A stretch of 63,736 nt of DNA, filler included, from Collodictyon triciliatum (GCA_043381765.1; 5 parts of 5 records of this genome joined end to end with filler, not necessarily neighbours in it); one strand, 5' to 3'. Positions 6,601-58,500 are shown, numbered from the whole stretch's first letter. The notes: generated from the sequence alone by a model not told the origin. Numbers and translations are program-made.

Positions 6601-9600
6601 TTACTGCCGGGAGTACTTGTCATATATGGCCCATATCAATCAGTCCCCTTAAACAAGTATACTGATATATTCTTTAAATATCCCTTTCAATTTTTTAATG
6701 ATGATATGTCTGTTTATTTTATCATATTTTGTTTTGTTTCTATTTTGTTATAGTTTTATTGGTGTTTAATTATTTTGAGAAATTACTCTGTTCTAATGAA
6801 TCGGCTTAAAGCGACCATTATTTTTTTTTTAATGATTTTATAATGGAATATTTAGACGGGCTCGATCAATTTAGTTCCCTCTACGTGTATTGTTGGGCTT
6901 CATTACTCTCCGACATTGAGACAGGTGATGAGTATGTCACTTGCTGACTTTGTGTATATTTTTAATTTAATTTATGTATCCAATTTGAGTTAACAAAAAA
7001 AAAAAAATAGGTGATCAGTATTTCATCAAACGGTTATGTTAAAGTGTGGGAGATACGGAAGTTCAACATTGCATTCGAGTTTTTAATTTCATATCCGGTT
7101 TGCCAGCCAATTCAATTTCTTGTGTTTTGTTTTCCCCTGTTGACAGCAAAACAAAAATAACCAAAAGTATATTTGATTAATTGTCGGCATTTTTCTTTTT
7201 TTTTTTTTTTTTTTTTTTTTTTTAATTTTTTTTTTTTTTTTTTTTTTTTTTTTTTTTTTTTTTTTTTTTGTTTTTTTTTTTTTTTTTTTTTTTTTTGCTA
7301 TCCACTAATATTGCTAGTTTGTTGTAAGATCTGAAAACACTAAGTGTGCTTTCATATATTCTACCAGGAACCTGTAACCGCAACAGATCTAGATCATAAT
7401 TTTTGTCGTTTGTTGACCTGCCATGCAGACGGAATAATGAAAGTGATTGATTCCTTCTTTCTTTTTTATTTTTATTTTTTATTTTTATTTTTTATTTTTT
7501 ATTTTTTATTTTTTATTTTTTTTTTTTTATTTTTTTTTTTTTTTTTTTTTTTTTTTTTTTTTTTTTTTTTTTTTTTTTTTTTTTTTTTTTTTTTTTTTTT
7601 TTTTTTTTTTTTTTTTTTTTTTTTTTTTTTTTTTTTTTTGTTTATTGTTTATTGTTTTTTATTTTGGAGGATATGCATTATGGCGATTGCAGAAANNNNN
7701 NNNNNNNNNNNNNNNNNNNNNNNNNNNNNNNNNNNNNNNNNNNNNNNNNNNNNNNNNNNNNNNNNNNNNNNNNNNNNNNNNNNNNNNNNNNNNNNTATTT
7801 TTTATTTTTTATTTTTTATTTTTTATTTTTTATTTTTTATTTTTTATTTTTTATTTTTTATTTTTTATTTTTTTTTCCTCCTTTCAATCTTGTGCAGGAC
7901 GGTGGAATTGATTCCTTGTTTCTTTTTCACTATTCTATCGAGTTATTTTATCTCAAACAAATTTTGAAAATGTGTCAGGATATTCGGTTCCCACATAAGA
8001 TTGCTCTTGGTTTAAATTATCGATTGCATCCATTTGTAGTTTTTAATAAGGAAAACCTCTTACAGGCTTGGAATTTCAACAGTGGACAAATTATATACTC
8101 GTATGAGGGGTCTCAGCGAGAGATATATCAACTGATACACCTACCTCCAACATATGAGCGACCTATTATTGGTGCTGGCTCTGACCGTGGTCTTTTGACT
8201 TGGATTAATACCCCATCAAACAAGGAGAACAGCATACCAGCTGAACTCAATGGGTAATATTATTTTTATAGTAGGAATCGTCTATGACATTCCTATTATT
8301 TATGTCAAAAATATTGTTGAAAAAAATCAGACACAATGGACACGTGCAATGTGTTGCGTTATGTGGAAATCTCATGGCCTCCGGTGATTCAGAGGGGTCC
8401 CTTCTTATTAGAATGATTGAACCCCGTAATATTTACAAATGATATTTTCATCCCCCTCTTTGCCTGTATTTCTGAATTTTCATATGTAGGTGATAAATCA
8501 ATCAACTATATTTCATAACTACCTAACCTCGCTACACTTTGAATCGAATAAAGGAAAAAAATATTTCATAACTACCTTTTGTTGCATAAATATTGTTTGT
8601 AAATGAATCTTATCAAGCGAAATACTGTAGCAAAAATATTATTTCATATACAAATACCTGGTCCAACAGCCAGAGAGCATACATCTGTCGAAAAGGTAGC
8701 CATATCAAACTGCCCTTTCATGGCTGTTTTCTACAAATATTAGGACAACTAGAAAAAAAAATCAATACATATATATCCCTTCTTTTCATTACAATATGAA
8801 AATGATTGGCTACAATATTTAAGTAATAATTAACATTTACTTTTCTTTTCTTTTCTTTTCTTTTCTTTTCTTTTCTTTTCTTTTCTTTTCTTTTCTTTTC
8901 TTTTCTTTTCTTTTCTTTTCTTTTCTTTTCTTTTCTTTTCTTTATATCCTTTATATTTATCTCTCNNNNNNNNNNNNNNNNNNNNNNNNNNNNNNNNNNN
9001 NNNNNNNNNNNNNNNNNNNNNNNNNNNNNNNNNNNNNNNNNNNNNNNNNNNNNNNNNNNNNNNNNAGTAGTAGTAGTAGTAGTAGTAGTAGTAGTAGTAG
9101 TAGTAGTAGTAGTAGTAGTAGTAGTAGTAGTAGTAGTAGTAGTAGTAGTAGTAGTAGTAATCATAATCATAACCATAATCATAATGATAACGACAATTAC
9201 AGATAACCAGCATTGTCTGTGATGAAGCAGAGTCAGTGGTCTTCGCAACTGATGTTTTGGGCTATGCAAAGGTGTTTATATAGTTAAATACAATCTCATC
9301 TATTGTCTATCCTCATGCCATCAAACTGTTCCGTCGTATTTGAGAAGATGGTGTCGAATCCGTTATTGTCTTTTTAGGCTTGTGCAAATATCACTGATGG
9401 TGCTAATCATATATTAAACTGATTTATGATCATCAAAGATATGGCACTCTTCCGTTATTTGTGGTTCTGAGACAGCCCCACGAGCCCAGCGATTCTGGAG
9501 AGCCCATCAATCGAAACTATCAAGGTTAGAGTATGAATGATACCCATATCGCTGCCTCTATTTCCAAGGATTGTATTTGCGTTTCATCCACGGTCTATCA

Positions 9601-55570: not shown

Positions 55571-58500
55571 TTAAGAGGATTCTCGTCCTCTGGAATGGAT
55601 GGTCATTTTCATACCATTTGCTGATTGTAGGATGATTACAGCACGGTAGTCAGGTTCAAAGTTTGGTGCGAGTCGCAGAGAAAACCTTTGGAGAATAAGG
55701 ACAGCAGCCACCTTCGCCTCAGTATATGCCATATTCTGCCCCAGACAGATGCGCGGGCTTTGCATATGAGGCATTGGTTGTTTTTTTTTTTTTTTTTTTT
55801 TTTAAATAAATTTTTTATTTTTTTTTTAATTTTTTTGGTATNNNNNNNNNNNNNNNNNNNNNNNNNNNNNNNNNNNNNNNNNNNNNNNNNNNNNNNNNNN
55901 NNNNNNNNNNNNNNNNNNNNNNNNNNNNNNNNNNNNNNNNNGTATGTATGTATGTATGTATGTATGTATGTATGTATGTATGTATGTATGTATGTATGTA
56001 TGTATGTATGTATGTATGTATGTATGTATGTATGTGTATTTGTGCACGCAAAAATGATACTCGTATTTCACTTGGGATTACCATCATTCAATGTAGTATA
56101 CCTGCATCAGGACCCCAGTATTCCTTAATTCGGTGTGTCATGTAGGGATAATAGAATACCGATGTTCCAGCCTCCTTTAATTATCATGAATAGTTGATTA
56201 CAATAAATTACTTAACCATATATGTCTCTATATTTTCGGTTAAAATCTAATAAATCCCATTTTTCATCACTAAAGAAAGCATCTGAATCAGATTAGTTGA
56301 AATGATTATGTAATGAAATGTTGAAAGAGAAAGAGGCGGAGTAAGGCATTGAATAAGGCGCTCTTGTTATTACTCATACAATGAAATATCCGTTCGGAAG
56401 GACATCATCATTTACAGCCGTACGAAAGTTTGTTGGAACAGATGGATGGAGTCGAAGAGTTTCATTAAGAGCCTAAAATTAAATGGTTTATACACAGTAT
56501 TGTTTATTGTGTATTTTTGTTTTCTTTTTTCCTTGGGGATGTACGAAAGTTAAGTGATTTTGAAGTATTCGCCCTTTTATGTTGGACTATACTTTGCATC
56601 AAATGAAGATAATTGATTAAATAAGGGAATATATCGATACATTCTTCAAGTAACGCAACTCATCCAATTTTTCTGCAGTCAATTCTGTACCACCTGAGGA
56701 TTTCCGTAATAAATCATGAGCGATTTACTATATAATTTTTATTTATTCAAAAAGTACCAATAACTCGCTCAATTTCATTTCTTATTAGTGCTTCAACAGA
56801 AGGATTTTTTGCAAGTTCATAAAAGAACCACGTGAGCAAGATGGCTGTGGTATCCCTCCCAGCAATCAACATATTTCGCAACATGTCCTTCAAATATTCC
56901 CTTTTTTATGAACAAAATAATTGATCAATATCCTATTTCCATCTGTAATCTATTTCTAGATAGAATATTCACACAGTTTATCAAGCGTACAATGTCAATT
57001 TAAAATCTTGAGATTTATGTATATAAAGATATCGAAATAGCTGATATATATATATATATTGTTAGGGAACCTCGAATAAAGAAAAAAAATATTGTTAGGG
57101 AACCTAGATGGAGGAGGTTTTGAGCATGCATAACAAGCCAACAGGTCTTCTCGGTTGGCAAGGTTTGGGTCTGTAAGGCACTTGTCGATGACCTAATTTA
57201 CCGTTTCATTCTTATAATTACACTGTGCTTTTTATATATCGTTTGTAGAATATCTATCGACTATATTTCAAAATAAACATACGTATTTCATACCTCAGAA
57301 AATTATTATTTTTTCGTGAAAATATAGAAATGGACACACATTTTGTTACATAATTAATAATATGTAAAAGGATAAAAAATAAAAAATAAAAAATAAACAC
57401 AGAATAAAAACAAAAAAAAGAAGAGAAAACAAGTCTTTTCTATATTCGCATGCATAGAGTACGAAATTATTCACCATTCTGTCAGTAGTATTTAAAGAAT
57501 AACAAAAAAAATCATCAAAATCACATTTTCATACCTTTTCAACAAAATCGTTGATTATCTTCAAGCTATTATCAAATCTCTTGGTAGAAAACAATTTCCA
57601 CAAAGGATTCGAGATATATCGCGCATATGTCGCCTGCTGGACAAAATCAAAGGCCTGGGCAAAGTTGCTTTCTCCTCCCATTGAATCAATATTATGTCCA
57701 AATAACACCTCTCCAACACTGTCCATAGTGAATCTAGTTTGAAGTGGTGATAAATAAACAAACACAATAGCTAACTGTCGTGAGAAAATGTAAACCCCGC
57801 CTCAAGGAGGATACATGTCTTGGAAAGAAAATGGCAGAATCTTATGGAAAATATCTTATGTTTCTAAAAAATAAAAAATTCATCATCTTCCTTAGTTTCA
57901 TCAAGTTGTAAAAAAAAAAAAAAAAAAAAAAAAAAAAAAAAAAAAAAAAAAAAATACAAGAAAAAAAAAAAAAAAAAAAAACAAATAAAAAAATTTTAAA
58001 AAATTAAAAAAAAAAAAAAAAAAAAAAAAAAAAACCTGAAGAAAATTTCCTGCAGGTCAATAATGCTGCCCCTATCACACCCTCTTTCAAGATATGCAAG
58101 CAGGTGTTTACCATGCCTGGTAAAAGTGGGAATCATCATACTCAATTCGACCTTTAAGATAAAACTATTTATTACTCTGGAGTTTAATTATTACTGTGTA
58201 TCGTATTATTTGCCCTATATTATATAGGTAATAATACGACACTGTGATGACAATTCTTAAAAAATGAATGTTATGAGGATTTTCTGCGAAGGGACGACTG
58301 GAAACATTATACCTTTTGGAAATGAGGACGTGCTGTTTGACGGTGGTGTTTCCATTCTTCTCTATTTGTGTTATCCGATGGGTGAAATAAAACAACAATA
58401 TATAGACCACAACTTGAAGACTAATATATCTTAAATACTAAAATGTAATTTTTCCTGATGCAATTAGAAAATTGGATGATTTTTATACCCATTGACATTG

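Follow-up and report, generated by a model that had tools for sequence, protein, structure and literature searches.

Very short poly(A)-tailed insertions attributed to an L1-like LINE in DNA of Collodictyon triciliatum

A stretch of 63,736 nucleotides of Collodictyon triciliatum DNA (GCA_043381765.1), here called the window, contains ten copies of a short sequence motif that is followed by a run of A's. Very probably, these copies are ten independent insertions, made by target-primed reverse transcription (TPRT), of a single poly(A)-tailed, L1-like retrotransposon family without long terminal repeats (non-LTR), of the apurinic/apyrimidinic endonuclease (APE) type. Nine of them are truncated within the last 9–31 nt of the 3' untranslated region (3'UTR). 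The motif is continuous with the C-terminal end of the second open reading frame (ORF2) of a long interspersed nuclear element (LINE) whose relatives are L1-like, and the nine stubs are therefore regarded as extreme 5' truncations of an L1-like LINE. All positions are counted from the first letter of the window.

Ten Copies with a Common 3' End

The first-pass annotation of the window had listed nine sites (8525, 12375, 13070, 13454, 13756, 34693, 38149, 51627 and 57073), and each of them does contain the motif, or the 3' part of it, ahead of an A-run. A tenth, decayed copy at 13539-13559(+), missed in that list, was picked up by a scan with the 20-mer TTGAATCGAATAAAGGAAAA. Allowing three mismatches, this 20-mer occurs eight times in the window, against 0.02 occurrences expected from dinucleotide-preserving shuffles of the window, which also served as the baseline for the two values that follow. 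The sequence GAATCGAATAAAGG (at most two mismatches) was found seven times against 0.92 expected, a count reached in 0 of 100 shuffles, and CGAATAAAGGAAAA (at most one mismatch) eight times against 0.10. In a k-mer census of the window, the k-mers of the motif are top-ranked by repeat count among the non-low-complexity 11-, 12- and 14-mers. The copies lie on both strands and are spread over three of the five segments that are separated by linkers (see below).

The 3' end is common to all ten copies. Each copy terminates with an intact or decayed AAAG(G), behind which stands an A-run of 4–10 or a decayed A-rich tail. Their 5' ends are graded, with core lengths before the tail of 414, 31, 30–31, ~27, 19, 18, 17, 16, 10 and 9–10 nt. 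Nine of the ten copies hold at most 31 nt of the element, taken solely from the last third of the 93-nt 3'UTR, and no copy has a length between 31 and 414 nt. The shared 3' end with its A-tail and the variable 5' ends had already been described in the first-pass annotation, which also considered the family to be ultra-short. This is true for the stubs but not for the 12375 copy, which constitutes the 3' end of a longer, 424-bp copy (11992-12415). At position -18 of the element, a C is found in the copies 8525, 13454, 13756 and 38149 and in the related metagenome locus L001 (see below), and a T in the 12375 copy and in those at 13070 and 13540; it follows that at least two source variants contributed to the insertions.

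Five of the ten copies are located within 11992-13779 (1.8 kb), directly upstream of a gene for a leucine-rich repeat (LRR) protein. According to a Poisson estimate, such a clustering is unlikely under uniform placement. Either a hot spot for insertion or permissive intergenic DNA may account for it.

Duplicated Flanks

Target-site duplications (TSDs) were sought by a census of all exact direct repeats of at least 10 bp within 7 kb, together with a mirrored control geometry. Exactly three clean, non-low-complexity repeats of at least 16 bp with a short spacer ending in poly(A) were identified in the window (8508/8561, 34677/34708 and 57056/57089), and none of comparable quality was found in the window with the mirrored geometry. 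These are the repeats that flank the stubs 8525, 34693 and 57073. An empirical p-value was determined for each copy from 1500 random non-tandem sites. Tandem repeats were masked for this test, as microsatellites had confounded the comparison with unmasked random sites.

The three perfect TSDs (17 bp at 8525 and 57073, 16 bp at 34693; p <= 0.0007 each) and a decayed 17-bp TSD at 13454 (14/17 matching, p = 0.003) had been claimed earlier and were all recovered. The same applies to the claim that two inserts are shorter than their own TSD (15 versus 16 bp at 34693, 16 versus 17 bp at 57073). Over the ten copies, three TSDs are perfect (16–17 bp), one is strong and decayed, two are weak, two are uninformative and two are absent. 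In the duplication 34677-34692 / 34708-34723, the leading A's are ambiguous with the tail. The perfect duplications argue only for a relatively recent insertion.

The duplication begins at a T|A step in all four interpretable sites, which fits the L1-type nick preference 5'-TTTT/A as quoted in PMC5110952. Its length is in agreement with the TSD peak at ~15 bp given for L1-mediated insertions in PMC2831318. In each of the three copies with a perfect TSD, the last TSD base is a T, the same base that immediately precedes the truncation point in the element, and 1 nt of microhomology at the 5' junction is thus possible. Taken together, the poly(A) tails, the 16–17-bp TSDs, the shared 3' ends and the continuity with an ORF2 support TPRT by a retroelement, as had been proposed for these sites from the start.

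The Parent LINE

Scanning of metagenomes for the motif resulted in two loci. One of these, L002, is an unrelated chance match. The other, L001, is informative, as it also matches the window upstream of the 12375 copy: in a blastn alignment, window positions 11992-12415 correspond to positions 633-1056 of L001 (reverse complement) with 97.6% identity over 424 bp. The stubs align to L001 solely over the last 20–44 nt. The terminus of L001 is the same as that of the window copies, AAAG(G) followed by A's.

On the minus strand of L001 (549-1157), an open frame of 202 aa contains a zf-RVT domain (PF13966; E = 1.5e-7, 32.4 bits against a cut-off of 27.5), and P0122, another fragment of the family, reaches 36.4 bits for the same domain. 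The protein P0135 (359 aa), a cluster mate of a 98%-identical fragment, reads the same ORF through to the remnant in the window, where its residues 298–359 align by tblastn to 11992-12177 with 92% identity. This read-through places the end of ORF2 at 12310-12312, after which come a 3'UTR of 93 nt and an A10 tail.

A phmmer search of 1.84 billion representative proteins with the L001 ORF gave 14 relatives, consisting of metagenome fragments at 59–98% identity and four full-length proteins. The latter are 1226–1275 aa long and share 25–38% identity with the ORF, which aligns at their residues ~960–1150. All four contain Exo_endo_phos, the APE-type endonuclease family, and the reverse transcriptase domain RVT_1 (E ~1e-33 to 1e-36), and three of the four contain zf-RVT with a score below the Pfam cut-off. 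One of them, P0129, can be aligned with human L1 ORF2p over the endonuclease (EN) and reverse transcriptase (RT) domains (E = 3.4e-57). The first-pass annotation had suggested a search for an APE-RT parent ending in this tail. Such a tail is now seen behind an ORF2 C-terminus with zf-RVT; the EN and RT domains are visible in the distant relatives only, and the parent is presumed to carry them as well.

Longer relatives of the L001 ORF were not found in a word-indexed protein search, and viral contigs contained neither a motif match nor a relative of P0135. The scan of prokaryote genomes returned ten matches (L003-L012), all of them unrelated bacterial sequences without the upstream part of the LINE, and they are considered chance occurrences of the 20-mer. 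In five of these (L005, L007, L008, L010 and L012), from five Bacteroidota contigs, the motif sits in the same conserved coding context, which is unrelated to the LINE.

Table 1. Coordinates of the ten copies and of their flanking duplications.
Feature	Position	Strand	Description
Longest copy, 424 bp	11992-12415	+	blastn to L001, 97.6%; TSD test p=0.28, none detected
ORF2 C-terminal remnant of 424-bp copy	11992-12312	+	stop TAG at 12310-12312
3'UTR of 424-bp copy	12313-12405	+	93 nt
Tail of 424-bp copy	12406-12415	+	A10
Stub 8525	8508-8577	+	insert 8525-8560: 30–31 nt of 3'UTR end and A6–7
TSDs of stub 8525	8508-8524 / 8561-8577	+	ATATTTCATAACTACCT, 17 bp, perfect, spacer 36, p<=0.0007
Stub 13070, older and decayed	13070-13103	+	core ~27 nt, AATAGAGG; tail GAAGAAA; weak TSD 11/14, p=0.016
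Stub 13454	13437-13494	+	core 13454-13471, 18 nt, CTTTGAATCGAATAAAGG; A8 tail
TSD of stub 13454	13437-13453 / 13478-13494	+	17 bp, decayed, 14/17 matching, p=0.003
Tenth copy	13539-13559	+	TTTGAATCATATAAAGAAAAA, 3 mismatches to the 20-mer; weak TSD 10/12, p=0.016
Stub 13756	13756-13779	-	core 13761-13779, 18–19 nt; A5 tail 13756-13760; no TSD, p=0.21
Stub 34693	34677-34723	-	insert 34693-34707, 15 bp, CGAATAAAGG and A's
TSDs of stub 34693	34677-34692 / 34708-34723	-	16 bp, perfect, spacer 15, p<=0.0007
Stub 38149	38149-38186	-	core 38156-38186, 31 nt, 4 mismatches (87.1%) to the 12375 copy; A7 tail
Stub 51627	51627-51647	-	core 51632-51647, 16 nt; A5 tail
Stub 57073	57056-57105	+	insert 57073-57088, 16 bp, CGAATAAAG and A7
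TSDs of stub 57073	57056-57072 / 57089-57105	+	ATATTGTTAGGGAACCT, 17 bp, perfect, spacer 16, p<=0.0007

Proposed Mechanism and Alternative Explanations

In the proposed mechanism, the endonuclease of the element would nick the bottom strand at an A/T-rich T/A step, and the freed T-rich 3' end would prime on the poly(A) of the LINE RNA. Reverse transcription would then copy the terminal ...AAAGG and a few further bases before stopping very early. The top strand would be cut 16–17 bp downstream, the short cDNA would be joined with 0–1 nt of microhomology, and fill-in would create the TSD. The early stop may come from loss or degradation of the template, from low processivity during initiation or from early processing of the second strand, and we infer that the bias towards stubs would be intrinsic to the element. 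A stem-loop in the 3'UTR, serving as a 3' recognition signal or as a roadblock for the RT, is not supported, since the predicted RNA fold is no better than that of shuffled sequences (z = 0.04; equalled or surpassed by 98 of 200 shuffles).

Several observations weigh against this explanation. A full-length ORF2 closer than 25–38% identity was absent from the libraries searched, and P0135, the longest family protein obtained, is a C-terminus of 359 aa without an RT or EN domain. Within the window, neither the 86 ORFs of at least 90 aa nor the nine long ORFs encode RT or EN. The masked random-site test gave no TSD at 11992 and 13756 (p 0.2–0.3). Copy 38149 is embedded in an (AAAACT)n-like repeat and copy 51627 in an (ATT)n microsatellite, with a flanking repeat of 13 bp, and because of these positions the flanking repeats of both are uninformative. 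The hexamer AATAAA sits just 2 nt ahead of the tail, and it therefore does not behave as a canonical poly(A) signal. Four matches to the core 12-mer TTTGAATCGAAT, two exact ones at 6190-6201(-) and 55126-55137(-) and two with one mismatch at 3326-3337(+) and 60164-60175(+), lack both AAAGG and a tail, and the proposed mechanism does not explain them. No TSD flanks these cores at the three sites examined (6190, 55126 and 60165); they could be decayed or 3'-truncated copies, a host motif or chance matches, and their excess is marginal. Finally, the sample comprises ten copies in ~62.5 kb of non-N sequence from apparently concatenated contigs. That stubs outnumber longer copies 9:1 could in part be due to selection against long insertions in gene-dense DNA or to the loss of long repeats in short-read assembly.

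The best-surviving alternative, although quite unlikely, is that the LINE machinery moves, in trans, a discrete polyadenylated RNA of ~31 nt, from which the stubs originate. Such an RNA could have arisen by processing or slicing of the 3' part of the LINE transcript, or it could be a tail-only 'micro-SINE' (from short interspersed nuclear element, SINE), with the shorter stubs as truncations of it and not of the full-length LINE RNA. It would account for the upper limit of 31 nt among the short copies and for the gap between 31 and 414 nt. Two pairs of coinciding endpoints point in the same direction: the stubs 8525 and 38149 share their 5' start base, (T)AACCTCG, and 34693 and 57073 both start at CGAATAAAG. 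However, with nine short copies and ~31 possible starts, ~1.2 coincident pairs are expected and two to three are seen, which is not significant. Truncation of the RNA before reverse transcription has been proposed for short retrocopies (PMC2831318), but a promoter for RNA polymerase III (pol III) cannot fit in 31 nt, and the folding result given above provides no structure for a processing site in the 3'UTR.

Later deletion of the 5' parts of longer LINE copies is very improbable as an origin of the stubs. The two of ten copies without TSD (11992 and 13756) could reflect such a rearrangement; in four copies, however, a perfect or near-perfect TSD directly abuts the 5' end of the stub. A deletion would have removed the upstream duplication, and it is therefore excluded for those four.

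The probability is minute that the motif is a regulatory or 3'-end-formation signal of the host that the LINE merely shares. The motif does contain AATAAA, and four tail-less matches to the core TTTGAATCGAAT are found where 1.35 matches of any kind would be expected. This excess is marginal, and a regulatory site would not produce 16–17-bp duplications of unrelated flanks, nor would it explain copies on both strands and a motif that continues into the 3'UTR and ORF2 of a LINE. Just as improbable is the endonuclease-independent capture of LINE cDNA fragments as repair patches at double-strand breaks: short retro-derived patches are documented in PMC5110952, as class 2 templated sequence insertion polymorphisms (TSIPs), and in PMC4516963, and two copies lack a TSD, but TSDs are absent from such patches, which do not require poly(A) at a T/A nick, all ten copies end at the exact element terminus followed by an A-run, and the long TSDs of four copies contradict this origin for them.

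Sequence Context of the Insertions

The window, with ~35% G+C, has the character of eukaryotic draft sequence. Microsatellites flank nearly all of its 20 runs of N. The arrangement N44-TTAATTAATTAA-N44 is found at 20284-20383, 42674-42773, 49327-49426 and 59827-59926 and looks like a six-frame-stop linker between concatenated contigs, so that the window is possibly non-contiguous. Microsatellites and other short tandem repeats are abundant, with ~7% of the bases masked by a filter for periods 1–12 and units such as (ATT)n, (GAAA)n, (TATTTTT)n and (AAAACT)n.

The 424-bp LINE copy is followed directly by a G+C-richer block (12480-12816) that ends in an A10 (12806-12815). This block might be a further poly(A)-tailed retro-insert, of a different family; no protein match and no TSD were seen for it.

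An intronless LRR protein of 939 aa is encoded at 14579-17395(+). Its best homologue is a transcriptome protein of Diphylleia rotans (43% identity, 96% coverage), a freshwater protist of the CRuMs. This match is one of the eight EukProt TRINITY matches that were looked up, all of which belong to D. rotans. These matches hint, tentatively, that the host is related to this species. Other recognisable genes are represented by ion-channel exons and cysteine-dioxygenase-like fragments. Three ORF pieces at 39216-41318(-) match cysteine dioxygenase type I; profile positions ~132–165 are covered by two of the pieces, which suggests putative tandem duplicated gene copies. For the 689-aa ORF at 43290-45359(-), no homologues were found. 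One freshwater-metagenome sequencing run shares 0.06 of the sampled words of the window.

Significance

In this window, a LINE family is present almost solely as fragments much too small for repeat finders to detect, at a local density of ~1 copy per 6 kb. If the same is true genome-wide, transposon content and insertion rates are underestimated in such genomes, and retroelements are the origin of small A-tract indels with 16–17-bp duplications in gene-dense regions. In that case, the family would also be a natural system in which to study what stops TPRT after only a few tens of nucleotides.

An ordinary L1-like length distribution would hardly yield nine stubs of at most 31 nt in ~62.5 kb. 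A more far-reaching and rather doubtful idea is that the L1-like LINE of this poorly sampled protist lineage, or a ~31-nt tail RNA derived from it, mostly aborts TPRT. Its main footprint would be very many poly(A) stubs of 10–31 bp bearing AATAAA and flanked by 16–17-bp duplications, unseen by repeat annotation and tolerated in gene-dense DNA. Such micro-retro-insertions would be a hidden class, from which A-tracts and sequences resembling poly(A) signals could arise throughout the genome.

No description of a LINE family known mainly from copies below 40 bp was found by keyword searches of the open-access literature, which is weak evidence, and a keyword search of the same literature for retrotransposons of Diphylleia or Collodictyon found none, which is equally weak evidence of absence. 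For the host, whose apparent nearest sampled relative is, tentatively, Diphylleia (CRuMs), this is a first, partial description of a LINE.

Comparison with Known Retroelements

The 5' truncation of LINEs is textbook knowledge, and human L1 copies usually measure from hundreds of bp to 6 kb. The insertions described here resemble dead-on-arrival L1-type copies in their poly(A), their shared 3' and variable 5' ends, their 16–17-bp TSDs at A/T-rich T/A steps and their 0–1 nt of microhomology. The resemblance extends to the parent, with its ORF2 tail containing zf-RVT and its L1 ORF2p-like relatives with Exo_endo_phos and RVT_1. An L1-like LINE of the APE type is recognised here by zf-RVT, by the poly(A) after a fixed terminus, by TSDs of variable length and by 5' truncation with a common 3' end. 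In contrast to dead-on-arrival L1-type copies, nine of the ten copies keep just 9–31 nt, two inserts are shorter than their own TSDs, and the host is a protist and not an animal or plant. A bimodal length distribution of L1 is mentioned in PMC2831318.

Short mRNA pseudogenes (PMC2831318) and class 1 TSIPs (PMC5110952) are described as similarly short, poly(A)-tailed, TSD-flanked and missed by standard annotation. In human, 654 short mRNA retrocopies of at most 300 bp made by L1 have been reported, with a TSD peak at ~15 bp (Terai et al. 2010, PMC2831318). As causes of their shortness, a truncated or degraded template and microhomology-mediated joining have been proposed (PMC2831318, PMC5110952). 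According to these reports, their inserts come from cellular mRNAs or other non-LINE RNAs in trans and reach up to 300 bp. Here, the template is the 3'UTR end of the LINE itself, the inserts are ~10-fold shorter, and the tail follows AATAAA at a distance of 2 nt and not of 10–30 nt. A classification as processed pseudogene or class 1 TSIP was rejected, since these have a cellular template other than a LINE and the template here is the terminal LINE 3'UTR.

Very short SINEs are also comparable, like Platy-1, which at ~100 bp is called the shortest primate SINE (PMC4864456): they are tiny non-autonomous units with an A-tail that depend on LINE machinery. The full length of a SINE is defined, however, and an internal pol III promoter is usually present, whereas the stubs have graded 5' ends, do not exceed 31 nt and have the same sequence as the LINE terminus. 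Membership among the SINEs was also rejected: there is no defined unit with an internal pol III promoter or a head derived from tRNA, 5S or 7SL RNA, and Rfam and tRNA scans of the window gave no matches. Compared with these known systems, the mechanism is ordinary; it is the products that are unusually short, and the truncation profile that is extreme.

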